Below are positions 1 to 27,855 of a stretch of 64,000 nucleotides of DNA, piece after piece. The notes below the pieces were generated by a model. The model was not told where the DNA came from. It did not search any database and saw only the letters and a program-made list of their open reading frames with translations. Made by a program: the position numbers and the translations under genes. Position 1 is the stretch's first letter, and each line of letters begins with the position of its first letter. The stretch lies in contig JABJAL010000020.1 in assembly GCA_018669005.1 (NCBI GenBank), positions 3,117 to 67,116 of the forward strand, in the 5' to 3' direction. Source of the DNA: Nitrospinaceae bacterium. Lineage in GTDB: Bacteria; UBA8248.

Positions 1-12
1 TAAAAAAAAACG

Positions 13-1668
13 CTATCGCGGTATCACCATCACATCGAGACTGGAGGCATCCCGGCCCTCAAGGACGGTGTTCTCCGCCCGAATAAGCAGGGTGTCATGA
101 AAGTTCCTTCTTTCGGCCGCCGAGGCGCAACTTGAAATCTCAAGCCGCAGCCTGTGGCCCGGCTGAAATACATTGCAGGTAGGAACGAGGCCGATCTCGA
201 ATACTTCCTCGGCTCCCGGTGTAAGGGACTTGGGGTTCGTGTGCGGGTGAAAGGGTCGACCCGGTTTTGAGCGCTCCGCGTCCAGCGCCCGGTGGGAGGC
301 GCGAAGCCAGCCGCTCGTTAAAATTCGAAAATCCCCATCCGGCCCCTCGTCTGCAAACGAGACGAGCCAATCGGTGTCCTCAGCAGAGGAGCGGGCCACA
401 AGCCGGAGCGAGAGCGGACCCGTGATTTCAAGCGGGGCGTCCACGGGCCCCGAGCGATAAACCAACCGAGGTTTGCCATATCGCCAGCCCTCGCCCAGGG
501 GATCGTTTACATAGCTTCGCTCTCCGCCGCCATCAGGAGACTCGGACAGCGTGCCCTCAAGTCCGCCCGCCGGGCCGCCAAGATGGAATCTGCGCCACTG
601 CCCCCGCGCGATGGGCCAGGTATCCTCGCCCCGCCAGCGCTCCTCGCCCTGAATGTAGAGCTGAATGGGCGGGCCCTCCATCACCCCGGTGTCCATGCCT
701 TTGAGCCATTGATCGTACCAGCGCAGTGCCTCCTCGTGGTAGGCGCTGAACGGTCGCCAGGGCCGGGGCCGGGGGCCGACAAGCATCTTCTTGGGGATGT
801 CCCCCACTCCCTCCCAGCCGTCGAACACGCCCGGCAGGTGGAGCCACCAGAAATCCCAGTCGCAGCCGAAATAGGTAGGAATCTTGATTTTATCAAGATC
901 ATAGAAGGGCGAGCGCGTCTTGTAGTAATCGCTGTCCAGCGGGCGCTCGAAACATATGCCCTCGCGGATCATCTTGTTGATGCCCGAGGGATCGGCCACC
1001 CGCTCGCCGCCGAGGTTTAGGTTCGCCACCGAGGAGAACCAGTTCCACATGAACCCGCTATAGGGGATCCCCCCGTGATAATTTCGGTTGCGATAGAGAT
1101 CGGTGAAAGCGTCATAGGGAAAGATCGCTTTGAGCGCATCGGGCTGATGCGTGGCTGCCAGCACCTGAGATTCTGCAAAATACGAGCAGCCCATCATACC
1201 GACCGAACCGTTTGACCAGGGCTGGGCAGCCGCCCATTCAATCAGATCGACATAATCGGCCTGCTCTTTTTCTCCCTTGTCGTCATAGCTTCCCCCGGAA
1301 TCGTTGGTGCCCCGAACGTCCACGATGAGGTGAACATATCCGCGGGGAACCCAGAACTGGGTGATGCCCGCCTCGTTTTGATTGAGCAGCACGTCGGTGA
1401 GCTGAAGCCCTCTCGTGTAGGGCGAGAGCGAAAGCAGAACGGGGAATTTTTGCCCCGAGCTGCGGGGGCGGTAAACGTCCGCCGCAAGATGAACGCCGTC
1501 GCGCATCGGAATGAGCAGGTCCATATCCGAGGTGATGGCATGGCGGGGCTCTGAGCGCTCTCTAACCTTGGGCGGCTCATCATAGGGCCATTGCGGCCAC
1601 GCGGCGGGATGTACCGTGCGGATACGATCAGGATCAACATCGGGCTCAATATTTCGGCTCATCGGCAC
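13..1668 (-). CDS. CocE/NonD family hydrolase (S15 X-Pro dipeptidyl-peptidase-like alpha/beta hydrolase)
   Basis: 551-aa ORF. The nucleophile-elbow motif GCSYFAESQ (G-x-S-x-G-like) and overall similarity pattern match the CocE/NonD family; the C-terminal part resembles a beta-sandwich domain. Confidence 0.8.
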   Translation of the reverse strand: MPMSRNIEPDVDPDRIRTVHPAAWPQWPYDEPPKVRERSEPRHAITSDMDLLIPMRDGVHLAADVYRPRSSGQKFPVLLSLSPYTRGLQLTDVLLNQNEAGITQFWVPRGYVHLIVDVRGTNDSGGSYDDKGEKEQADYVDLIEWAAAQPWSNGSVGMMGCSYFAESQVLAATHQPDALKAIFPYDAFTDLYRNRNYHGGIPYSGFMWNWFSSVANLNLGGERVADPSGINKMIREGICFERPLDSDYYKTRSPFYDLDKIKIPTYFGCDWDFWWLHLPGVFDGWEGVGDIPKKMLVGPRPRPWRPFSAYHEEALRWYDQWLKGMDTGVMEGPPIQLYIQGEERWRGEDTWPIARGQWRRFHLGGPAGGLEGTLSESPDGGGERSYVNDPLGEGWRYGKPRLVYRSGPVDAPLEITGPLSLRLVARSSAEDTDWLVSFADEGPDGDFRILTSGWLRASHRALDAERSKPGRPFHPHTNPKSLTPGAEEVFEIGLVPTCNVFQPGHRLRLEISSCASAAERRNFHDTLLIRAENTVLEGRDASSLDVMVIPR

Positions 1669-13895: not shown

Positions 13896-16800
13896 ATGCA
13901 TAGCCGCCGAATCACAAGAAAACTCACAGGTTTTTTAGTATGTAGCATTTTGGCGCTTGGTGTATCGAATGCCAACGCGGCCAACAATGCTGCGGACTTA
14001 GCGATGGAGCTGGCCAAGGCGCTCAAAGTGTCGGCGGCCAATGCCCCAGCTGCGCTTAAAGCACTACAGGGACGAGGCATCATACCTGTCGAGGTTTTTT
14101 CAGGCGATCCGGTTACCTCCAACGTGGCGCAGACAATCGCCACTGGTCTAATTAAATCAGGCATCAAACCCCCGGAGGCGGCAAAAACGCTAGCCGCCGC
14201 CGCCGCTGCCGCATCAGTCCCCCTCCAGGATGCGGTGCAGGGTGCCGTCAAGGCCGCCATTGCTGCGGGGGCCGATGTCGCCGCCGTGACAAAGGCTGCC
14301 TCCGAGGGTGCCGTCAAGGGCTCAACGGCCCAGGTCTCAGGCCCTATGACCAAGGGCAGATATATCAAACGAAACTTTCTCAACAAGGACACGCGCTCTG
14401 ACGCCGCCGCCGCCTACGTTCCCAAGGGCAAGGCAAATTTTGAAGCTGTGGTGGCGGAAATTGCAGCCAAGGGAGAGAATAGCTTTGCTGGCAGCAAGGC
14501 CTCAGATCCCCTCACACGCGCCGACTTCCTGACCTTGAGATACCTTCAGGTAGGCGGCAAACCGGGCGCGGTCATCGGCGATAAAAAACGCCTCCTCAAG
14601 AAAAAAGGACTCATCGCCTCCGAGGACATCGGACAGGTCAAATCATTCCAGGGCGATGCTACCCTCACGCACCCCGGCTCAGAAAAATCAATCAAGATCA
14701 CGGGCAACGAGGCGATTCTCTATAAGGATGTAGGAGAAACTGAGCTCGACGCACGAATCGAACTGCTCTTCGACGATGGCAGCACACTCACCATCAGTGA
14801 GGACACAGCGCTCACCATCGACGAAATGATCTACAATCCGAAGACCAAATACCGCTCGATCAAGCTGCGAGTGAAGTCGGGAACAATTCACGTTAAGACG
14901 GCGAAGAACAGCAACCCGAAATCGAAATTCTCAATTGTCACACCGACCGTCGTTGCCGGACTCCGGGGAACAGACGTTTACATGAACGTCACCCCCACCG
15001 GCGCATCACGGGTCACTTCGAACACAGGCGCGAACGCGGGTAACGTTGTCATGCGAGCCGCCACCGTTTCCGACCGACCGCCACCAGCGACGACGCCAAC
15101 CCCTGGCACACCCCCGCTTGCAGCCACCCCGGCCCAGGCGCCGCCAGGGGTCACGGTCACCCCCGGCAACGGCTCCAGCGCCGCACCCGGCGCGACAACC
15201 GCCTCGCCCCCCGCGCCGCCCACCCCGGCGCAGAATCAGGCCGACGCCGCCGCGACAACCATTACAAATCCCGGCACGCCTCAGGCCGTATCGGTGGCAG
15301 GTGATGCCGCCGGGTCTGCTGCGCTAGCCGCAGCGAGCGGTGCCGTGCAGGCCGCCCAGGCGGCAGGCGTGAACGTTGGTCCTGTCGCTAATGCCGCTGC
15401 CCAAGGTGCGATGACAGGCGCGCAAGCCGCTGGCGCGGGTGGTGCCGCCGGTATCATCGCCAACGCATCCGCGAACGGCGCGGTCTCCGGCGCGCAAGTC
15501 TCAGGCGCCAACGTGGCAGCCGCCGCTAACGCCTCATCTCAAGGCTCGATTCAGGGCGCCCAAGCAGTAGGTGCGAACGCCAACGCCGCAGCCGCGGGCG
15601 CAAGCAACGGGGCCGTCCTCGGCGCACAGTCCTCCGGCGCCAACATGGCCGCCGTCGCCAACGCTTCCGCGCAGGGCGCGATGCAGGCGGCGCAATCCTC
15701 GGGCGCGAATTTGGCCGCCATCGCCAATGCCTCCGCGCAGGGCGCGATGCAGGGCGCCGAGGTCTCGGGCGCCAACGCAAGTGCCGTCGCGAATGCTGCG
15801 GCCCAGGGCTCGATGCAGGCCGCCGTCGCAGGTGGCTCGAACGTGGCAGCCATCGCCAACGCTACGGCGCAGGGCGTCGTTGCAGCGGCACAGGCCATGG
15901 GCGGCAACGCCGGAGCCATGTCACAAGCCGCATCAAGCGGCGCCATCGCGGCTGCCCAGGCAGCAGGCGCAAATGTAACCGTAATCGCCACCGCCGTCGC
16001 TTCAGGCGCCGTGGCATCCGCACAATTAAATAACGCCAACGTCGGGGCGATCGCCCAGGCGGCATCGTCAGGCGCGATGCAGGCCGCCTCACAGTTCGCT
16101 CCAGGCGCTCCTGGTGCCCCCGCGGGTGCGGCTAGCTTCGCGAGTGCTATCGCGAATGCGATGGCACAGGGTGCAATGGCCGGAGCGCAGGCAGGGGGCG
16201 CCAACATCGGCGCCGTCGCGCATGGAACCTCCGCCGGCAGCATCGCTGGTGCCCAAGCGGGCGGCATGGACGTTGGCAGCATCGCCCAGGCGATGTCCCA
16301 GGGCCTGACCCAGGGGGCCGGCGCGGCTAACGCTGGCGTCGTGGCTCAGGCCGCATTGACGGGGGCCGTGCAGGCCGCCGCCGCATCCGGCGCGAACGTG
16401 AACGCAATCGCCGCAGCGACATCGACCGGCTCCGTTCAGGCCGCCGCCGCTGCGGGAATCAACATTTCGGTAATAGTTCAGGCGTCATCGGCGGGCGTGG
16501 TATCGGGTGCCGCCTCCATCCAGCAGGCGCAGGCCCAGGGTCAGTCCCTTGCCGGGCTGTTTAGCGGCTCCACCGGAGCGGCTGGCGAACTCGGTGCCTC
16601 CGGTGCCCCCAATGTACCCGGTGCCCCCGGCGTACCCGGCGGACCGGGCGGTCCTCCCACGGCATTTACAATCAACACCACCGCCATCGCACAAGCAGCG
16701 ACTGGCGCAATGGTCCAGGCAATGATGCAGGCAGGACCAGGAGGTCCTGGTGGTCAAGGTGGACCAACGAATATAGCCGCTATCGTTCAAGCCGCCGCAC

Positions 16801-18164
16801 AGGGCGCGGCATCTGCGGCGGCATTTGCCGCAGCCGCAGGAGGCGGTCCGGGCGGTCCCGGTGGACCTGGCGGGCCGGGTAGTCCGGGCGGGCCGGGTGG
16901 ATTTGACGTTGCCTCGTTTGCCCAATCTATCGCCCAGGCGGGTGCTCAGGCATTTCAAGCAGGACCCGGCGGGCCGGGTGGTCCCGGCGGGCCAGTAAAT
17001 ATAGACATCGCCGCTATCACGAGTTCAGTAACCACTCAGACACAGGCGTTCGTCGCACAGGCCCAGGCGGCCGGTGCCTTCAGCGGTCCTGGTGGACCGG
17101 TTCCGGGTGGATTCGCCGGCCCACCACCACCAGGCACTAGCTTTGCCGGCCTTCCGGGAGATCCGGGCGGCGCTCCCGGCGAAGGCGGTGATCCCGGCGC
17201 CTTTATCGCACCTCCTCCTGGTGGCTTCGTCGGCCCTGCTCCCGACGGCTCGACATTTGTTCCGCTCGATTCCCTAGCGACGGACACCACCCTCATCAAT
17301 TTGATCATAGAGGGCGCCACTGCCGAGGAAATCGCTGCAAGCATCATCTCTGGGTCAGTAGGCGATAGCACACTCACCACCACTGTTCAGACAACTACGG
17401 TGGAGGCAGAAGAACCGCCGGTGATTCTCAGGGACTCCCTCGATCGGCAGATCGTGGGTGTTCTCCTCTCAACGGCGCCGGACGGCACCACCGCCGAGAT
17501 GTTCACCTATATATTCGTCAAGGACAGCAACGGGATTAGCACGGTAGATGTCAAAGTGACGGTGCCAAATTCCAACATTCCTATCCCTATTTTCCAAACC
17601 TTCCAGGCATTGGTTTTCCCGGAGGAGACATTTAAATTAGGCTCCCTCATGTCCGAAGACGTGCGGAAGGAGTTTTTCGAAAAAGATCTCACCAGTTCCC
17701 TGCTGGGAACGATTCCGACAACGGGCATTACCGGCACCTATAAATTTGAGGTCTTCGAGCCGAACACGTCCACCCCGAGCATTACGAGGACTGTGCTCTT
17801 CTCGGGCGTCGCGGCACTACTTCCGAATCCTTCGGCGCCGACCGTCTCGGGTTCGGGCACCACACCCACCATCATCGGCACCGCGCTGACATCGAGCCAG
17901 CTCACGGCCGTCGGAGCCTCGGCGGCGTACTACCAAATCATCGCCGAGAACATTACTACCGGAGCTATCGAGTTTATTTTCGACGGTGTGTCTGGACCCA
18001 CCATGGCAACCGCCACTCAGCTACAGTCCGGCATCCAGGTTCCCAGCGGTTTACTCATTAGCAGCAATAGCTACCGTTTCGCGGTCCTTGCATTTGATGC
18101 ATCAACTCTTTTGGGCGCAACAAGAACTTCCGAAAGCGCTGAAGCAAGCGCATTTACACCCTAA
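13896..18164 (+). CDS. Giant secreted protein (1422 aa): signal peptide, FecR domain, Pro/Thr linker, Ala-rich 11/22-residue repeat array, Gly/Pro-rich segments, Thr-rich C-terminal domain
   Basis: The signal peptide is FLVCSILALGVSNANA. The FecR-type segment is SIVTPTVVAGLRGTDVYMNV. There are about 18 tandem 22-aa units (GANxAAxANASAQGAMQxAQxS) and GPGGPGG runs. Confidence 0.8.
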   Translation: MHSRRITRKLTGFLVCSILALGVSNANAANNAADLAMELAKALKVSAANAPAALKALQGRGIIPVEVFSGDPVTSNVAQTIATGLIKSGIKPPEAAKTLAAAAAAASVPLQDAVQGAVKAAIAAGADVAAVTKAASEGAVKGSTAQVSGPMTKGRYIKRNFLNKDTRSDAAAAYVPKGKANFEAVVAEIAAKGENSFAGSKASDPLTRADFLTLRYLQVGGKPGAVIGDKKRLLKKKGLIASEDIGQVKSFQGDATLTHPGSEKSIKITGNEAILYKDVGETELDARIELLFDDGSTLTISEDTALTIDEMIYNPKTKYRSIKLRVKSGTIHVKTAKNSNPKSKFSIVTPTVVAGLRGTDVYMNVTPTGASRVTSNTGANAGNVVMRAATVSDRPPPATTPTPGTPPLAATPAQAPPGVTVTPGNGSSAAPGATTASPPAPPTPAQNQADAAATTITNPGTPQAVSVAGDAAGSAALAAASGAVQAAQAAGVNVGPVANAAAQGAMTGAQAAGAGGAAGIIANASANGAVSGAQVSGANVAAAANASSQGSIQGAQAVGANANAAAAGASNGAVLGAQSSGANMAAVANASAQGAMQAAQSSGANLAAIANASAQGAMQGAEVSGANASAVANAAAQGSMQAAVAGGSNVAAIANATAQGVVAAAQAMGGNAGAMSQAASSGAIAAAQAAGANVTVIATAVASGAVASAQLNNANVGAIAQAASSGAMQAASQFAPGAPGAPAGAASFASAIANAMAQGAMAGAQAGGANIGAVAHGTSAGSIAGAQAGGMDVGSIAQAMSQGLTQGAGAANAGVVAQAALTGAVQAAAASGANVNAIAAATSTGSVQAAAAAGINISVIVQASSAGVVSGAASIQQAQAQGQSLAGLFSGSTGAAGELGASGAPNVPGAPGVPGGPGGPPTAFTINTTAIAQAATGAMVQAMMQAGPGGPGGQGGPTNIAAIVQAAAQGAASAAAFAAAAGGGPGGPGGPGGPGSPGGPGGFDVASFAQSIAQAGAQAFQAGPGGPGGPGGPVNIDIAAITSSVTTQTQAFVAQAQAAGAFSGPGGPVPGGFAGPPPPGTSFAGLPGDPGGAPGEGGDPGAFIAPPPGGFVGPAPDGSTFVPLDSLATDTTLINLIIEGATAEEIAASIISGSVGDSTLTTTVQTTTVEAEEPPVILRDSLDRQIVGVLLSTAPDGTTAEMFTYIFVKDSNGISTVDVKVTVPNSNIPIPIFQTFQALVFPEETFKLGSLMSEDVRKEFFEKDLTSSLLGTIPTTGITGTYKFEVFEPNTSTPSITRTVLFSGVAALLPNPSAPTVSGSGTTPTIIGTALTSSQLTAVGASAAYYQIIAENITTGAIEFIFDGVSGPTMATATQLQSGIQVPSGLLISSNSYRFAVLAFDASTLLGATRTSESAEASAFTP
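15300..16530 (+). repeat. Tandem 66-bp (22-codon, internally 2x11) coding repeat array inside the giant gene
   Basis: The nucleotide unit gccaacgcctccgcgcagggcgcgatgcaggc... is visibly repeated. The protein units consist almost only of A, G, S, N, Q, M, V and I. Confidence 0.75.
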
Positions 18165-18250: not shown

Positions 18251-18336
18251 CTTTCAATCACAAGGGGTGATTAAGTAGTATGGACAGGTACGATCGGCGC
18301 ACGCTAATAAAAACCACCCGCGGGAGAATAAGAAGC

Positions 18337-19827
18337 ATGACATCAACACTAAAATTACTCGCGATACAAATAATCTCTGCGGGATTAATCACAGCCCCCG
18401 TATTTGCGGCTACCGGGCCTCTCACAGAGGCGAAACAACTCGAGGCCCAGGCAACTAAACACCTAAACGCCAAGAACATAGACACCGCAATACCCCTCCT
18501 GCGCCGCGCTCTCGAGCTTCTCGAGAAAAAACTCGGCCCCGCACATCCCCGCCTGGCATCGACCCTTGGTAACTTGGCAATTGTTCAGCAAATGAAAGGG
18601 CGCAATGCCGAGGCGCTCTCGTTATTCAGCCGCGCACTCAAGATTCGCGAGAAAGCGCTGGGCGCCGAGCATCCAAAAGTCGCCGACACTCTCAACAACA
18701 TCGGCGGCTTTCTTCAATCGCAGGGCAAACAAAAAAAAGCGGCTGCCTTTTTCCGGCGTGCCCTCGCCATCCGAGAAAAAAAGCTTGGTCGCTACCATCT
18801 CAAAGTGGGTCGGAGCCTCAAGAAATTAGCCGACATCTACCGACTTCAACAAAAATACAGCCAGGCCGAGCCTCTCTACCGGCGAGCCCTCGCGGTTTTT
18901 GACAAAACCCTGCCCCCCGGGCACACCAAGATCACCGAAACCCTCGAGTTCCTGACATTGTCGATGTTTCCGCAACGAAAATTCCTGTCCGCAGAACCTC
19001 TTCTTAAGCGCCTGCTCGCCTTACAGGAAAAATATCTGGGCAAGGAGCACATCGTGATTTCCAAGACTCTCAATAATCTGGCCATCTCCCTGAGAATCAA
19101 GGGAAATCTGCCAGTCGCCGAGGGACTCCTTCGGCGCTCTTTGGCTATCGTTCAGAAAAACCTGGGGCCCAACAATCTCCATGTCGCAGTAGGTCTGAAT
19201 AATCTCGCTGATATCTATCAGATACAAGGCTTACTGCCGAAGGCCGAACTTCTCTATATCGCTTCCATGAAAATGCGGGAAAAAATTCTGGGCGACAGGA
19301 GCCCGCAAGTGCTTTTTTCCCTGAATAATCTTACCAGTCTCTACCTCAAGCAAAGAAAATATGACAAGGCTGAACCTATCCTGAAGCGGGTACTCGACAT
19401 TCACACAAAAACACTTGGGCCCAAGCACCCTCGCGTCGCCTCAAGCCTCGCCTTTTTAGGGAACCTTTACCTGCGCAAGGGCGAATTCGAAAAATCCGTG
19501 GCACATCATCAGCGTGCCCTTGAAATTCGCGAGAAGATATATGGCTCAGATCATCCCGAGGTGGCCAAGAGTCTTCATCAACTGGCAACCAGCTACATTT
19601 TTCAGGTTGACCCCGGCAAATTCCGCGAGGCGGCAGATTTACTAAAACGAGCGCTGCGTATCCGGCAGAAAAAATTCAGCAAGAACCACCCGGCCATCGC
19701 TCTAACTCTCGAATCCTTAGCCCTTCTCTACAAAACCAACGAGAGGGACGGAAAACGATTTTCGGAAAGAGCCAAAATTATCCGGAGTAATATCAAGAAG
19801 AACAAAAAGAAAAAAACAAAACGCTAA
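18337..19827 (+). CDS. Secreted tetratricopeptide-repeat protein (TPR_10/TPR_12, kinesin-light-chain-like)
   Basis: The signal peptide is LLAIQIISAGLITAPVFAA. More than 10 repeats of the pattern A..L.nLa.lY..qGry.eAeplyrrALai.ek.lG..HP are present. Confidence 0.75.
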   Translation: MTSTLKLLAIQIISAGLITAPVFAATGPLTEAKQLEAQATKHLNAKNIDTAIPLLRRALELLEKKLGPAHPRLASTLGNLAIVQQMKGRNAEALSLFSRALKIREKALGAEHPKVADTLNNIGGFLQSQGKQKKAAAFFRRALAIREKKLGRYHLKVGRSLKKLADIYRLQQKYSQAEPLYRRALAVFDKTLPPGHTKITETLEFLTLSMFPQRKFLSAEPLLKRLLALQEKYLGKEHIVISKTLNNLAISLRIKGNLPVAEGLLRRSLAIVQKNLGPNNLHVAVGLNNLADIYQIQGLLPKAELLYIASMKMREKILGDRSPQVLFSLNNLTSLYLKQRKYDKAEPILKRVLDIHTKTLGPKHPRVASSLAFLGNLYLRKGEFEKSVAHHQRALEIREKIYGSDHPEVAKSLHQLATSYIFQVDPGKFREAADLLKRALRIRQKKFSKNHPAIALTLESLALLYKTNERDGKRFSERAKIIRSNIKKNKKKKTKR

Positions 19828-22452: not shown

Positions 22453-23190
22453 TCAATCAACCGGATCGATATCGAGCCCGTATTCTTTTTCCTTGATTCG
22501 CGCCTCGTAAAATTGGAGTGGCGAACTTCTTTTCTTCTCCCATTCACGAAAAAGAATCTTGTAATCCTCTTCCATCCGACAACCAAAAATTATACCTTTC
22601 AAAAGTTCTTCTGGAAATTTCCGAGTAGTGCTTGCTAAATTAAACGCAAAAATTCTTCGTTCTTTTTCATATTCCCATTTCCTTGATTTAGATAAGAACA
22701 TATTTTCCAAATCTTTCTCGGGAGAATGAGAGAGAGGATCGACTATTGGATATTCATTTGAATAGTTAACCTTTCGGGCACTTCCAAAAAAAGAAGTTTC
22801 ATTTGGCACCTCGAACTCCAAACAGAATCCTTGGTGTGAACTTGAGTAATGCGAATACATTAAAATTTCATCATTAATTTCACTGAAACAACATAGACCT
22901 ACTCCCATATTTTCACATTCTTTTAAAAAATTATTTCTAATTGTCGTCTCTAATTTTGTCTTATCTATCATTGCCATGTGTTCGGGGGTAATTTCTATTA
23001 ATTCTCCAACAAATTTTTCTTTGTCTTCTTCTGTTTCTCCAATTCTAAATCCAGGCCGACAATCAAATGGATCGTTAAAATCCAGTGGCGAGGAAAAATA
23101 TATTTCACTATCACAGATCAGACTTCTGGCGTGTTTCAACTCTTCCGTTGTGCTCAATGACTTGTATTTATAAAGAGTTGAAATACTCAT
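22453..23190 (-). CDS. DUF2971 family protein
   Basis: The N-terminal signature is LYKYKSL...EIYFSSPLDFNDPFD (DUF2971: lYKYrs...lwfssp..fNDP.E). GC is ~35-40 % in a 65 % GC context. The start overlaps the upstream hydantoinase stop by 23 nt. Confidence 0.65.
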   Translation of the reverse strand: MSISTLYKYKSLSTTEELKHARSLICDSEIYFSSPLDFNDPFDCRPGFRIGETEEDKEKFVGELIEITPEHMAMIDKTKLETTIRNNFLKECENMGVGLCCFSEINDEILMYSHYSSSHQGFCLEFEVPNETSFFGSARKVNYSNEYPIVDPLSHSPEKDLENMFLSKSRKWEYEKERRIFAFNLASTTRKFPEELLKGIIFGCRMEEDYKILFREWEKKRSSPLQFYEARIKEKEYGLDIDPVD

Positions 23191-26100
23191 CTTGCCCCCC
23201 CCTCACCTTCCCCGTTGCCTTCTCATCAACTTCAAACGTCTCGGGGTCAACAACCACGCCATAATCCTCCCGCGCGCTTTTAACCGAAACAACTCCGTCT
23301 TTCACATCGGCAGCAACGGTCTCAAAGGGGCGATCAAATGGCTCGCCAAACCCGCCGCCACCCGGCCCCTCAATAAGGAGCCTGCCGGGGGGAAGATCGA
23401 CGTTGGCGTACTGGGGAAGGTCGGAAAGTTTGCCGTTTTCACCGAACATAACGCGCGCGATGGCGCCGGGGCCGCCGCCATGAAGACCAAAAGTCGTGAC
23501 CGTTCGGCAAGATTCCCCCCTCGTTGAGCACGAAACAGGGGCATCGATTTCGGCCTCATAGTAAACGCCCGTGCCCCCGCGCCAGCGGCCGGGGCCGCCC
23601 CCGTCCATGCGAAGCTCTTGCCTGATAAAGCGCACCGGGTAGTCTTGCTCGTAGTGCTCTAAGTTCGGAATGGTGAGCGCCCCCAGGGTGGGCATGTTCC
23701 CGATGAGGGGAAAGCCGTCGCGGCCCTCGACTGCCCCCGCGCCGGGGCCGCCCCCCCAGTGGTAGACAACAAAAAACTCGCCGCGCACATCAAAGCCCGC
23801 CGTTACCGGGTAGGCGGTTTTGGCCCAGGCCGCAGACACGCGGCCCGGCGCGACATCTGCCAGCGCCTTCCAGACGCACTGGGCAATCTCGTGCGAGGGA
23901 AAGACGGTGCAAAGCGTCACCGGGGCCGGAAACGAGGCGTTCACGACGGTGCCTGCGGGCGCAATGATTTTGATGGGCCGGTAGGTGCCCTCGTTGTGGG
24001 GAATGAGCGGGTCCATCATCGAGGAGAGGCCAACATAAAGGGCCGAGCAGGTGTTGGCGATGGGGCTGTTCTTGTAGCCCTTCATCTGGGGAGCCGAGCC
24101 CGTGAAATCTGCGGTGATGTCGGTGCCTTTTTTCGTGAGCGTGAGTTTTACGGGAATCTCGGCGGGCTCAAAACAATCGGTATTCATGTACTCGGTGGCG
24201 GTGTAAACACCGTCGGGTATCACCTCAAGCTCGGCGCGCATCAGGGCCTCGGAGTAATCCAAAAGCCCCGAGAGCCCGGCAACAAGCGCGGCCTGCCCCA
24301 TTTCCGCGCCAATCTCGGCAAGGCGTTTTGAGCCAATGTGGGTGCTCCCCACCATGGCGGCAAAATCGTGGGCAATCACCTCGGGGGCGCGGGTGTTGGC
24401 GAGGATAAGACGGATAAGATCGGCGCGCGCCTCGCCCCTCTCGTGGATTTTTACCGGGGTGATCCTGAATCCTTCGTGGAAAATTTCTGTGGCATCAGAA
24501 TTATAGGTCCCGATGACGCCGCCGCCCACATCGACCTGGTGCGCTCGATTCGAGACAAATCCGGCCAGATCGCCTCCCACGAACACCGGGGCGATGACGG
24601 TCCAGTCGGGCAGGTGGTTGCCGCCCCCCATGTAGGGATCGTTTAAGAGAAATAAATCGCCGGGATTAATGTCGCCTGCAAAATCTTTTAACACCCCCCG
24701 TACGGCAAAACCGCCGCTGCCGGTGTGGATGGGCAGGCCGTCGGCCTGGGAAACAAGGTGGCCCTCGGGGTCGCAAATAAAACATGAGAAATCGTGTGCC
24801 TGGCTAAAGATGGTCGAGCGGGCCGTGCGCTGCATGATGATGCCCATCTCGCGGGCAATGACGTCGAGGCGCTGCTGCAAGATGGCAAGGCTGATGGGGT
24901 CTGTGGCCCCGGTTTTCACATTTTTTGGGGACTCAACTTCGACGGCTTTAGCCGGGGCGGCCCCAACCGGGGCGACTTCGATAATGAATGCGCCACCGCC
25001 GCCCAGGCGAAGGGTATCGCCGGGCTCGATGAGAATCGTGGTGGTCGGCTCCTCGACGATGGCCGGGCCCTCGACAACGGAGGCGGCGATTAAATCACTT
25101 CCGCGCCAGACGGCGGCCTCCTCCCAGCTACCGGTTGCCTCGAAATAAGCGCGGCGATGAGATTGAGGCTGCGCCACGACGTCGGCACCGGGCGCTGTGT
25201 CAAAAACAAGGGGTGGTTGTTCGGCCTCGGCACGGACCCTGAAGCCGGTAATCTCGACGGGCTCGCCGGGGCGATGGTGGCCGTAGGTTGATTTGTGGGT
25301 CTCGTGAAAGCGCTCGGCAATGCTAGTGGCTGCACCATCGTTTAATGTGCACTCGACCTCAACAGAAAGGTGCCAGGCCTGGCCGGGGTAGCGCATGTCC
25401 AGGGCCGAGGTGAGGGTGAAATCCCCTGGGGCGCTTCCGGCGCTCTCAATATCGCGTGCGAGCTCTTCCCTGAGGGTATTGATTTCGCCCTCAAGGACCG
25501 AGGCGGGGGTCTCATCTAGCCGCAACGTTCGGCTTTTCAATCGGTTATATCGAATCGGGCTCCCCGCCATCCCGACGGCACACACCCCTGCCGCCTCGCG
25601 CGGAACGATGATGTGCGACATGTGGCAGTGGCGCGCCACCGCCGCCGCCGAGAGCCCTCCTGCCCCGCCGCCCGCGACGAGGGCCATCTGCCGGGGGTCG
25701 GCCCCGTGCCGCGCACATATTGTCTCGACTGCGCCCGCCATCTGGCGGCTCGCCAGTCGAACCGCGCCCGCCGCCGCCTCGGGGACGCTCATCCCCAGCG
25801 CCTCGGCCACCCTTGCGAAGGCTGACTCGGCTTTCTCCGCGCTCAACGGCATCTCGCCATCCAGCAGCCCGCGCGGGTCCAACCGACCCAGAATGAGATG
25901 GGCATCCGTGATGGTGGGCCGCTCACCACCTTTTCCATAGCTCGCAGGACCCGGCTCGGCTCCCGCGCTATCGGGCCCCACACGGAGCCCTCCGCCCGGA
26001 TCCGCCCAGACGATGGCGCCGCCCCCGGTGCCGATGGTGTGTACCTCAACAGAGGGAAGCGCCACGTGATAGCCGCCGACGGCGGACTGATCCACCATCC

Positions 26101-27028
26101 CCGGCTTTCCATCGCGCAGGAGGGTAACATCACAACTGGTACCGCCCATGTCGAAGAAAACGGCGCTTTTGACCCCGCCCGCCTCGGCATAAATTCGCCC
26201 CGCCGCCGCGCCCGCTGCAGGCCCGGAGAGAACAAGGGAGGCCGGATGACGGCGGCAGTGGGCCACGGTCGCCATCCCACCGTTGCTCTGAAGGAGCATG
26301 AGGGGCCCCTCATAGCCCATATTCCGAAGCGCATTTTCTAGTTCCTGGAGATAACCAGAAATGCGCGGGCCAAGAAAGGCGCTGACCGCCGCCGTCGAGG
26401 TGCGCTCGTACTCACCCATGATTGGCGCTGTGTGCGATGACAGGGTGATGTAGGCGTCCGGAAGCGCTTTGGCAAGAATTTCGCCAGCACGCTCTTCATG
26501 GGATGGGTTTAGATAGGCGTTGAACAGACAAACGGCTATGGCCTCGACTTTTTCACGCACAAAAATCTCCGCCGCCAGATCGACACTGGCCTCATCGAGC
26601 GGAGCTGTCTCCTCCCCTCCCCGGCCGATTCTCCCAACCACCGGAAGGCTGAGATGACGCGGAACCAGCAAGGGCGGATTGGGTGCCCGATGGTCCCAAA
26701 CATTTTCACGCAAACCCCTACGGATGGTCAGTGCGTCACGGAAACCCTCTGTCGTGAGTAGTCCGGCTCTAGCTCCCTTTCCGGTGAGCAGGGCATTCGT
26801 CGCAACCGTCGTGCCGTGGACGAAACACCCACAGGCACTAAGAAGTGTTTTCGTGTCGATATTCAACATGGCGGCAGCGCGCCCCAGAGCCTCGACAACA
26901 CCTTCCTCGGGGCTAAACGGGCGCGAGGCCGCCTTGGCCAGGCATATAATTCGCCCGCCGTCATCGGCGATGACAAGATCGGTAAACGTGCCACCAACAT
27001 CGACACCGATGCGGTAGGTAGGCCCCAT
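23168..27028 (-). CDS. Fused hydantoinase A / hydantoinase B (N-methylhydantoinase / 5-oxoprolinase / acetone-carboxylase family), 1286 aa
   Basis: The HyuA-type N-terminus is RIGVDVGGTFTDLV. The HyuB-type C-terminal half is DPISLAILQQRLDVIAREMG... The start was chosen at MGPTYRIG with an AAGGGA RBS. Confidence 0.85.
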   Translation of the reverse strand: MGPTYRIGVDVGGTFTDLVIADDGGRIICLAKAASRPFSPEEGVVEALGRAAAMLNIDTKTLLSACGCFVHGTTVATNALLTGKGARAGLLTTEGFRDALTIRRGLRENVWDHRAPNPPLLVPRHLSLPVVGRIGRGGEETAPLDEASVDLAAEIFVREKVEAIAVCLFNAYLNPSHEERAGEILAKALPDAYITLSSHTAPIMGEYERTSTAAVSAFLGPRISGYLQELENALRNMGYEGPLMLLQSNGGMATVAHCRRHPASLVLSGPAAGAAAGRIYAEAGGVKSAVFFDMGGTSCDVTLLRDGKPGMVDQSAVGGYHVALPSVEVHTIGTGGGAIVWADPGGGLRVGPDSAGAEPGPASYGKGGERPTITDAHLILGRLDPRGLLDGEMPLSAEKAESAFARVAEALGMSVPEAAAGAVRLASRQMAGAVETICARHGADPRQMALVAGGGAGGLSAAAVARHCHMSHIIVPREAAGVCAVGMAGSPIRYNRLKSRTLRLDETPASVLEGEINTLREELARDIESAGSAPGDFTLTSALDMRYPGQAWHLSVEVECTLNDGAATSIAERFHETHKSTYGHHRPGEPVEITGFRVRAEAEQPPLVFDTAPGADVVAQPQSHRRAYFEATGSWEEAAVWRGSDLIAASVVEGPAIVEEPTTTILIEPGDTLRLGGGGAFIIEVAPVGAAPAKAVEVESPKNVKTGATDPISLAILQQRLDVIAREMGIIMQRTARSTIFSQAHDFSCFICDPEGHLVSQADGLPIHTGSGGFAVRGVLKDFAGDINPGDLFLLNDPYMGGGNHLPDWTVIAPVFVGGDLAGFVSNRAHQVDVGGGVIGTYNSDATEIFHEGFRITPVKIHERGEARADLIRLILANTRAPEVIAHDFAAMVGSTHIGSKRLAEIGAEMGQAALVAGLSGLLDYSEALMRAELEVIPDGVYTATEYMNTDCFEPAEIPVKLTLTKKGTDITADFTGSAPQMKGYKNSPIANTCSALYVGLSSMMDPLIPHNEGTYRPIKIIAPAGTVVNASFPAPVTLCTVFPSHEIAQCVWKALADVAPGRVSAAWAKTAYPVTAGFDVRGEFFVVYHWGGGPGAGAVEGRDGFPLIGNMPTLGALTIPNLEHYEQDYPVRFIRQELRMDGGGPGRWRGGTGVYYEAEIDAPVSCSTRGESCRTVTTFGLHGGGPGAIARVMFGENGKLSDLPQYANVDLPPGRLLIEGPGGGGFGEPFDRPFETVAADVKDGVVSVKSAREDYGVVVDPETFEVDEKATGKVRGGQDEYFNSL

Positions 27029-27072
27029 GTTTTTCCCTTTCAAAAAATATCGACTGCAAGGTAGGTGACTGA

Positions 27073-27855
27073 CTACTGGAGAGTAAGTCCACCATCCATG
27101 ACGAAAAGGCCGCCCGTCACATAGGAAGAAGCTGGCGAGCAAAGATAGATCACTAGCGGAGGCATCTCCTCGGGCTGGCCAACACGGCCCATCGGCATTT
27201 TTTTCACATAAGCGGCAAGCGCCTCGGGATTGCTCATCAAGGGCTCTCCCATGTCAGTGTCAAACTGGCCAGGGACAATTGTATTTACCCTAATACCGAG
27301 TGGTGCCCAATCCACCGCCATGGCCTGAGTGAGGTTATGGACAGCGGCCTTGCTTGCCGCATAAACGGGCAGGCCGGGCCGGGCGCGGAGACCGGCAACG
27401 GAGCCGAAATTCACGATGCGCCCGCCGCCTGATTTTTGAACCTCCGGCTTTTGCATATGGGGAACCGCAGAAGTGCAAAGGCGAAAGGTGCCGTAAACAT
27501 TTACGGCAAATGTGCTCTCAAGTTCATCATCCGAGGTATCAAGAAGGCCTACCCGGGGACAGATTCCCGCCGCGTTAACGAGCACATCAAGGCGACCCAT
27601 CTCTCCCGCCACTTTTTCGACCGATTCCCTCGCCGAGACAGGATCCGCCACATCGAGCGGACAAACAAAAGCGCGACGGCCCAAAGCCCGGATTTCCCCG
27701 GCCACTTCCTCAAGAAGATCGGCTCTGGTTGCGCCCAAGGCAACATCGGCCCCGGCCTCTGCAAGCGCTAATGAAACGGCGCGCCCGAGACCACGACTCG
27801 CGCCTGTGACAAACGCGGCAGAACCACTCAAGTCAAACCCTTTCATTCCAGCCAT
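27073..27855 (-). CDS. SDR family oxidoreductase
   Basis: TGASRGLG Rossmann motif and YAASKAAV catalytic YxxxK. Confidence 0.85.
   Translation of the reverse strand: MAGMKGFDLSGSAAFVTGASRGLGRAVSLALAEAGADVALGATRADLLEEVAGEIRALGRRAFVCPLDVADPVSARESVEKVAGEMGRLDVLVNAAGICPRVGLLDTSDDELESTFAVNVYGTFRLCTSAVPHMQKPEVQKSGGGRIVNFGSVAGLRARPGLPVYAASKAAVHNLTQAMAVDWAPLGIRVNTIVPGQFDTDMGEPLMSNPEALAAYVKKMPMGRVGQPEEMPPLVIYLCSPASSYVTGGLFVMDGGLTLQ

Follow-up and report, generated by a model that had tools for sequence, protein, structure and literature searches.

Does a 66-bp coding periodicity that specifies 411 residues almost without charge represent a continuous amphipathic helix, a low-complexity fiber, a recombining DNA array, or a folded repeat protein? 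This question is raised by a locus in a window of 64,000 nucleotides from a Nitrospinaceae bacterium (GTDB lineage Bacteria; UBA8248; NCBI GenBank assembly GCA_018669005.1, contig JABJAL010000020.1, positions 3,117 to 67,116 of the forward strand), by which we mean the whole stretch analyzed. The repeat region covers aa 469-879 (nucleotides 15300-16532 of the window) in the plus-strand frame of the open reading frame (ORF) 13896..18164, which encodes a FecR-family protein. A sequence-only reading of this DNA had described about 18 near-identical 66-bp units at 15300-16530, each consisting of two related 11-mers, and had proposed an uncharged 11/3 amphipathic helix or fibrous rod. Here, we consider it probable, though well short of certain, that the array encodes helix-turn solenoid rods in a structural, spacer, or adhesive protein of the Nitrospinaceae envelope, outside the cytoplasm, and that the 66-bp periodicity reflects, at the coding level, a protein repeat that is old and has diverged.

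Periodicity and Composition of the Repeat

A hidden Markov model (HMM) of the unit recovered 18 consecutive copies of 22 aa (66 nt) at aa 472-875, arranged as 12 units, the linker APGAPGAPAG, and 6 further units, in agreement with the number first estimated. The consensus of the unit was G-A-N-[VI]-[GA]-A-[IV]-A-[NQ]-A-[AS]-[AS]-Q-G-A-[VMI]-Q-[GA]-A-Q-[AS]-[SA]. When the protein was compared with shuffled sequences, autocorrelation was strong at lag 22 (z = 12.5-15.7) and at lag 44 (z = 10.6-14), and the DNA identity at lag 66 was 0.51 versus 0.29 in the shuffles (z = 16). In contrast, no 11-residue subrepeat was detected by either identity or BLOSUM62 autocorrelation (lag 11, z -0.1 to 1.3), so that the supposed division of each 22-mer into two related 11-mers was not found. 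Minor peaks at lags 9 and 13 arose because Gly occupies unit positions 1 and 14. The hydropathy spectrum peaked at 3.64 residues (22/6) and at 10.96 residues (22/2).

The absence of charge was confirmed. The region contained 157 A, 62 G, 41 S, 37 Q, 32 V, 28 N, 17 I, and 12 M, together with only 2 D, 1 E, and 1 H and not a single K or R. This depletion extended well beyond the array, since aa 394-1125 (732 aa) held 1 K/R and 12 D/E.

The units were, however, far from identical. Their pairwise identity averaged 0.54 in DNA (maximum 0.80) and 0.45 in protein (range 27-77%), and the longest exact direct repeat in the array was 22 bp. Tandem Repeats Finder reported only 3.8 copies at 72% match, and the repeat families were 60-76% identical. 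The two units that the sequence-only reading had quoted turned out to be the most similar pair of all (80% identical in DNA and 77% in protein). No other ORF of the window carried the 22-mer unit. Several long ORFs overlapping the array, on the minus strand at 15526-16282 (for example, 15551-16282, 243 aa, and 15526-15780) and in other frames of the plus strand at 15046-15978, were rejected as genes, because these Ala/Pro/Arg-rich frames are by-products of the GCN-rich periodic codons.

Predicted Structure of the Array

AlphaFold2 (AF2) was run on aa 465-880 together with two orthologous segments (model residue 1 = aa 465). The model had a mean predicted local distance difference test score (pLDDT) of 87 and a predicted template modeling score (pTM) of 0.83. 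It comprised 18 helices of 16-23 residues, mostly separated by 3-4 nonhelical residues, and only the hinge between the two arrays was disordered. The structural check proposed at the outset, which set disorder against a periodic helix, thus came out on the side of helices. Mapped on the unit register, the helices started at position 4 and ended at positions 20-22, leaving G1-A2-N3 nonhelical. A Foldseek search of the PDB returned designed helical-repeat proteins as the best matches: 8cwy_A gave E 7.3e-7 and TMq 0.63, and DHR4, a designed helical repeat protein (DHR; 5cwb), aligned with a root-mean-square deviation of 2.7 Å over 174 columns (TMt 0.67). Natural solenoids of the ARM/HEAT type (beta-catenin and importins) matched weakly (E 0.08-1, TM scores 0.12-0.25). 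The model is best read as an alpha-solenoid in which every 22 residues contribute one helix and one turn, and membership in this class is accordingly by prediction only.

Several properties of the sequences themselves agree with this model. G1 and G14 were near-invariant across units, and position 3 was Asn here and Asp in relatives. In four orthologous arrays, prolines occurred at positions 4, 6, and 22 only, that is, at a helix start or in a loop, and most of the residual acidic residues occupied position 3, with basic ones at 9 and 13. Where the arrays contained small indels, these fell at turns, and the sole large indel removed two units, equal to one helix pair. On a helical wheel, V/I/M and Ala (positions 4, 7, 8, 11, 15, 16, 19, and 22) formed one broad face, with N9, Q13, Q17, and Q20 opposite; the hydrophobic moment of the unit was maximal at 98-100 degrees, and A10, G14, and G/A18 lined up as a GxxxG-like ridge of small residues. 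Since Gly1 and Asn/Asp3 are conserved in each unit and Pro4/6 occurs in some, a break of the helix every 22 residues can be argued without the model. The earlier proposal of an 11/3 amphipathic helix therefore held in part: the region is predicted to be helical, periodic, and amphipathic, but it has no hendecad and its helix is broken at every unit.

Relatives of the Repeat

An exhaustive profile search of 1.84 billion representatives (E below 1e-3) yielded 51 proteins, in 50 of which the strongest lag within 15-30 was 22. Four of them were rejected as relatives: P0032 and P0040, which are leucine-rich repeats with period 22, P0013, a phage-like 22-mer protein, and P0033, a eukaryotic Ser/Asp-rich protein. 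All four were without the G1/N3/G14 motif. The remaining ~45, none of them annotated, share G-x-[DN]-[VL]-x-x-[VI]-A-x-x-A-x-x-G-[AT]-[IV]-x-[AG]-A, so the search for the repeat in other proteins that had been recommended was productive. The relatives carried 12-26% D/E/K/R, whereas the Nitrospinota-type proteins (the window protein, P0003, P0008, P0011, and P0046) carried 0.6-5%, and the absence of charge is thus as unusual as had been suspected. The positions charged in the relatives (3, 9, 13, 17, 20, and 21) are those occupied by N/Q/S here (Spearman rho 0.58, p 0.005).

The architectures of the relatives were diverse. In P0007, P0010, P0020, and P0027, a signal peptide and a FecR-like domain were followed by 6-8 units and an acidic tail; FecR was confirmed by Pfam for P0007 and P0020, and the layout of P0027 and of P0010, which had no Pfam match, was read by eye. 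P0015 combined the 22-mers with a weak, subthreshold match to a receiver domain, and P0034 combined them with a YihY membrane domain. Many others were small basic proteins of 150-300 aa without a signal peptide and are probably cytoplasmic. One of these small charged proteins without a signal peptide (P0017, L012 6001-6792) lay after genes for DUF5132 and HMA_2 (heavy-metal-associated) proteins and before a P-type cation ATPase, neighbors that may hint at a metal-related role for a cytoplasmic branch of the family. In P0011 (L013 2620-3675) and P0046, the N-terminal module of the window protein ran directly into low-charge 22-mers, and no FecR domain was present. In P0011, a BBP2_2 outer-membrane beta-barrel (E 4.5e-8; ending ...GMQY) is fused to this module and three low-charge units, a combination that suggests a use of the repeat module at the outer membrane.

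For aa 465-880, Pfam gave no family even at E up to 1, and neither NCBIfam nor the PDB sequence search gave any for the repeat. Word-indexed homologue searches found only six proteins, and since low-complexity words probably saturated the lists, absence from them is weak evidence. The Rhodospirillales loci L005-L011 were rejected as relatives of the repeat, having matched the FecR domain only; the locus inspected, L008, encodes a 226-aa FecR protein without repeats. Literature searches on FecR and Nitrospina and on 22-residue alanine-rich helical repeats found nothing relevant. Judged by sequence, the array is a charge-depleted, expanded variant of a helical-repeat family that is undescribed and unannotated.

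Age and Length Stability of the Array

The sequence-only reading had expected recombination to vary the length of the array. Across the window protein and three orthologues, units at the same position were 54-66% identical versus 41-45% for units at different positions; therefore, the units diverged before these lineages split. The lineages themselves are only 53-62% identical overall, and the number and order of units were conserved among them. The unit number was equal in the window protein, P0001/P0002, and P0003 and was kept in three of the four orthologues. The fourth orthologue, in the metagenome-assembled genome (MAG) "ODZ_NOB7a" (L004 5998-10026), lacked exactly two units (44 aa), in register. 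This orthologue also has a duplicated N-terminal Ala-rich module and no FN3-like end, and the TPR and aminotransferase genes found behind the gene of the window protein lie behind it too.

Three independently assembled alleles of a sister species (P0001, P0002, and L016 ORF 416-5473; 1416, 1517, and 1685 aa) had N- and C-terminal regions with 0-2 differing residues and identical arrays (267 + 135 aa). The length differences were confined to the GPGFV/GPGG linkers: those separating the two arrays measured 48, 138, and 130 aa and those behind the second array 162, 173, and 349 aa, that is, differences of up to 90, 187, and, in total, 269 aa. The short APGAPGAPAG linker of the window protein corresponds to these 48-138 aa of GPGFV repeats. 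The variation of the Gly-Pro linkers is either true hypervariability or assembly collapse, and in both cases it lies outside the 66-bp array. An assembly artifact or duplication, which the sequence-only reading had named as grounds for abandoning its view, was rejected as the origin of the array, because the units, only 27-77% identical, have diverged and four assemblies of relatives, each made independently, carry colinear arrays.

A Proposed Helix-Turn Solenoid in a Probable Envelope Protein

According to the mechanism that we propose, each unit would comprise a turn of three residues (G-A-N, positions 1-3) and an amphipathic alpha-helix of ~19 residues (positions 4-22). The helix before the turn is probably C-capped by Gly1, and the one after it is probably N-capped by Asn3, which is Asp in relatives. 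Positions 4, 7/8, 11, 15/16, 19, and 22, with V/I/M and Ala, would form a buried stripe, and the ridge of small residues at A10, G14, and G/A18 (GxxxG/A-like) would permit very close packing of helices. The exposed stripe would consist of positions 9, 13, 17, 20, and 21, which are Asn/Gln/Ser here and Lys/Arg/Glu/Asp in relatives. Stacked one against the next in antiparallel fashion, the helices could then build two alpha-solenoid rods, one with 12 helices and the other with 6, and a flexible hinge of Gly and Pro would link them. In the center of this secreted multidomain protein, the rods would act as an uncharged shaft; the predicted order of its parts is signal peptide, helical N-module, FecR, Pro-rich linker, rods, elastic GPGG linkers with single helices, and FN3-like C-terminus. 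The protein can be pictured as a pair of rigid uncharged rods that flexible Pro/Gly linkers tie to binding domains at the termini.

The periodicity, composition, unit register, conservation, relatives, and copy-number stability were all observed directly, and the envelope or surface location and the spacer or binding role are what we infer from them and from the domain context. An extracytoplasmic location is suggested because of the signal-peptide-like N-terminus, the FecR domain, which resembles, below family thresholds, those of the Leptospira surface lipoproteins Lsa33 and LipL45, the transmembrane helix that stands in place of the beta domain at the C-terminus of P0003, the barrel of P0011, and the FN3-like end.

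Several points weigh against this interpretation. The fold was predicted from an alignment of only three sequences, the five AF2 models ranged in pLDDT from 72 to 87, and AF2 favors idealized helical repeats for Ala-rich periodic sequence, on which its confidence may be too high. Which positions are buried was read from the wheel and the register. Foldseek against the PDB found no well-matching natural solved structure, the PDB sequence search no relative with a structure, and the relatives, all "hypothetical" or unnamed, include no characterized homologue. The regular expression used for extraction fixed positions 1, 3, 4, 7, and 14-16 and so imposed part of the profile agreement. Moreover, the signal peptide was assigned by eye, and the conserved TPR neighbor described below says little on function.

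Alternative Explanations

The rivals can be judged by what they require of the unit. A continuous 11/3 hendecad helix, forming a right-handed coiled-coil fiber or lying on a lipid, ice, or polysaccharide surface, would account for the hydropathy peaks at 10.96 and 3.64 residues in a region that is Ala-rich and strongly helical, and because 22 residues make six turns at 3.67 residues per turn, it would keep its hydrophobic phase from unit to unit. However, those peaks are harmonics of 22 in a sequence with no 11-residue periodicity, every unit carries Gly1 and Asn/Asp3 and some carry Pro4/6, and AF2 introduces turns and compact stacking. AF2 and Foldseek both gave a stacked alpha-solenoid in place of the fiber or lipid-surface helix first suggested. 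There was also no Pfam match to Apolipoprotein, Perilipin, Synuclein, or LEA, and a type I antifreeze protein is contradicted by the scarcity of its ice-binding residue (Thr, 9 of 411) as well as by the lack of a period of 11. We therefore regard a continuous helix as improbable. The same low probability is given to a silk- or amyloid-like sequence, disordered or transiently helical as a monomer and converted on assembly to beta-rich fibers or matrix. The almost chargeless A, G, S, N, Q, and V composition, the GPGGPGG linkers after the array, and the signal peptide would suit such a protein. Spidroins are built of poly-Ala and GPGGX modules, and curli and Fap proteins of ~22-residue repeats rich in Q/N/G/A/S. 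Yet the helices were predicted with confidence where strand-loop-strand would be needed, Ala is patterned with no long runs, and the position pattern is common to relatives with 12-26% charge, which resemble ordinary amphipathic helices of soluble proteins. The unit consensus lacks the curli motif S-x5-Q-x-G-x-G-N-x-A-x3-Q, and no csg- or fap-type gene was present among the neighbors scanned against Pfam.

A contingency or phase-variation locus, whose copy number would be tuned by recombination or slippage, makes a demand on the DNA instead. The repeat is tandem and in frame, and the orthologue lacking exactly two units is what such a locus might produce; but units averaging 54% identity offer no exact repeat longer than 22 bp, their number and order have been kept across lineages 53-62% identical, and the arrays of the three alleles do not differ, so that we consider this explanation extremely unlikely, and the length variation foreseen by the sequence-only reading is contradicted by these data. 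The helix-turn solenoid in an envelope protein thus remains our preferred explanation. The uncharged amide-rich face of its rods may offer a neutral surface for binding or self-association. A bolder version, which we rate as rather unlikely, is that the exposed Asn/Gln/Ser stripes (positions 9, 13, 17, and 20), derived by recoding the charged surface that an older, cytoplasmic repeat family displayed, form a flat, regular amide lattice for a periodic uncharged substrate or for "polar-zipper" assembly. If so, the substrate might be a glycan of the cell wall or of exopolysaccharide, a mineral surface, or ice, or the zipper might drive the homotypic assembly of a Nitrospinaceae sheath or surface layer; in both cases, helical repeat proteins would have acquired a binding principle new to them.

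Layout of the Host Gene

The features of the gene are collected in table 1. The N-terminus of the window protein has a basic start, a hydrophobic core (LTGFLVCSILALGV), and an A-x-A site, all of which are kept in orthologues. Within the N-module, aa 125-142 (GADVAAVTKAASEGAVKG) matched the unit HMM with E 1.2e-3. The match to PF04773 (47.1 bits versus a gathering cutoff of 24, E 3.3e-12) places the protein as a whole, rather than the repeat, in the FecR family, and the orthologues P0001-P0003 are named "FecR family protein [Nitrospinota bacterium]". P0004, a 435-aa partial protein on a 2905-bp contig of a Nitrospinaceae MAG, was 100% identical to the window protein and represents an independent assembly of the same organism or one almost identical to it. 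It ends at aa 435, in the Pro/Thr-rich linker ~34 residues ahead of the array; evidently, short-read assemblies tend to break in this linker/array region.

Behind the arrays, aa 880-1125 consist of 26% G and 15% P without K/R and gave weak unit HMM matches at aa 927-938 and aa 959-975. The DNA of this part contains 9/18-bp tandem repeats (16600-16639 and 16842-16898), and GGNCCN repeats encode its GPGGPGG linkers. For the C-terminal region, AF2 gave a mean pLDDT of 48.9, rising to 70-87 for model residues 180-293. Interpretation was limited to the last ~114 residues, as aa 1130-1308 (~180 residues) were not modeled reliably. All Foldseek matches of these ~114 residues were FN3-type cytokine-receptor ectodomains (E 2.5e-4 and weaker). 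A word-indexed search with the C-terminal region found no match, and it missed even the sister-species orthologues that align at 44% identity.

Table 1. Features of the repeat gene and its downstream neighbor in the window; helix boundaries are given in residues of the protein.
Feature	Position (nt)	Residues (aa)	Strand	Basis
Whole gene, secreted FecR-family protein with repeat	13896..18164	1422 aa	+	ORF, Pfam FecR, orthologue names
Probable Sec signal peptide, ...SNANA/AN	13896..13979	1-28	+	Read from sequence
Ala-rich N-terminal helical module, at least one charged 22-mer copy	13980..14345		+	Unit HMM match
FecR beta domain	14736..15014	281-373	+	Pfam PF04773
Pro/Thr/Ala-rich linker, 25% Pro, 2 charged residues	15075..15299	394-468	+	Composition; conserved in orthologues
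Repeat array 1, 12 x 22 aa	15300..16097	469-734	+	Unit HMM, AF2
Predicted helices, array 1		467-489, 494-511, 515-535, 540-557, 562-580, 584-602, 606-624, 628-646, 650-667, 672-690, 694-711, 716-732		AF2
Short Gly/Pro inter-array linker, APGAPGAPAG...	16098..16130		+	pLDDT <50 at model residues 273-279; alignments
Repeat array 2, 6 units	16131..16532	746-879	+	Unit HMM, AF2
Predicted helices, array 2		745-767, 771-788, 793-808, 810-831, 835-853, 857-879		AF2
GPGGPGG-type linkers alternating with ~4 isolated Ala-rich helical units	16533..17270	880-1125	+	Composition, tandem repeats
C-terminal beta-rich region	17271..18161		+	AF2
Tentative FN3/Ig-like sandwich, last ~114 aa	17820..18161	1309-1422	+	AF2
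TPR_12/TPR_10 protein, probably cotranscribed	18280..19827		+	Pfam; 116-bp gap

Gene Neighborhood

The downstream TPR protein (515 aa) consists almost entirely of TPR_12/TPR_10 repeats after a hydrophobic N-terminal segment, and no terminator-like site was found on the plus strand in the gap before its gene. A TPR gene 51-53% identical follows the orthologue in L003 and L004, but not P0003. The flanking genes scanned with Pfam were mostly metabolic, encoding a TOBE_2-domain protein, a dehydrogenase, the TPR protein, an aminotransferase, a luciferase-like protein, a DUF2971 protein, and a hydantoinase. The last is a single 1323-aa gene (23168-27142, minus strand) that fuses hydantoinase A and hydantoinase B/oxoprolinase domains and is syntenic in L003; it belongs to ordinary metabolism and is unrelated to the repeat.

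Comparison with Known Systems

The alpha-solenoid is a well-known fold class, the 22-mer sequence family is unannotated, and the lack of charge is unusual even among the relatives. The relevance of the locus would lie mainly in repeat-protein structure and design and in domain annotation, and nothing suggests a new catalytic or genetic mechanism. The ~45 metagenomic protein clusters of this undescribed 22-residue family are without Pfam, NCBIfam, or PDB coverage and could enter domain databases. The protein also adds a distinctive envelope candidate to the sparse knowledge of the uncultured marine nitrite-oxidizing Nitrospinaceae.

Apolipoprotein A-I resembles the array in its 22-residue period, its amphipathic helices, and the punctuation at unit boundaries. 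It differs in that the punctuation is Pro, where the array has Gly-x-Asn, and in that it is built of tandem 11-mers, is highly charged, and forms a lipid-bound belt, where a compact solenoid is predicted here; the Pfam scan of the window protein found no match to Apolipoprotein.

With respect to the FecR domain, the Leptospira proteins Lsa33/LIC11834, LipL45, and Lsa19 likewise carry it in a secreted context that is not that of an anti-sigma factor. LIC11834 is described as a FecR-domain lipoprotein in work on how leptospiral proteins interact with plasminogen and the extracellular matrix of the host (PMC3444417). These lipoproteins are much smaller, belong to another phylum, and have no 22-mer array, and the FecR domain of the window protein matched their families only weakly and far below threshold (46 bits versus a cutoff of 420, and 39 versus 350). 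A FecR-type anti-sigma factor would have an N-terminal cytoplasmic anti-sigma domain and a transmembrane helix. This identity was rejected for the window protein, which begins with a probable signal peptide and then an Ala-rich module; genes for an adjacent extracytoplasmic function (ECF) sigma factor or TonB-dependent transducer were not among the flanking genes scanned with Pfam.

Natural ARM, HEAT, and TPR solenoids share the tandem helical units and the elongated superhelix. Their units are longer (34-42 residues with 2-3 helices), they are mostly cytoplasmic scaffolds, and no HEAT, ARM, TPR, or Sel1 profile of Pfam or NCBIfam matched aa 465-880. Natural counterparts of the array are the charged proteins with G-x-D-[VL]-x-x-V-A-[KR]-x-A-x-x-G-A-[IV]-E-A-A (P0007, P0009, P0010, P0012, P0015, P0020, P0027, and others), which have the same period and the same Gly, N-cap, hydrophobic, and Ala positions. 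They differ in charge (12-26% vs. ~1% here) and in unit number (4-9 vs. 18 here).

If the prediction holds, the array would be a natural protein near the idealized helical repeats of designers, with an unusually short one-helix repeat. It would combine an Ala/Gly core with a surface almost without ionizable groups, which is rare in soluble proteins and raises the questions of how an uncharged rod of 400 residues stays soluble and to what it binds. DHRs (DHR4, 5cwb; the designed crystal protein 8cwy) share its short helices, loops of 2-4 residues, regular two-layer solenoid, and small-residue cores. They are, however, artificial, at most 12-22% identical, and composed of two different helices per repeat with a highly charged surface, in contrast to the single, uncharged helix-turn unit predicted here.

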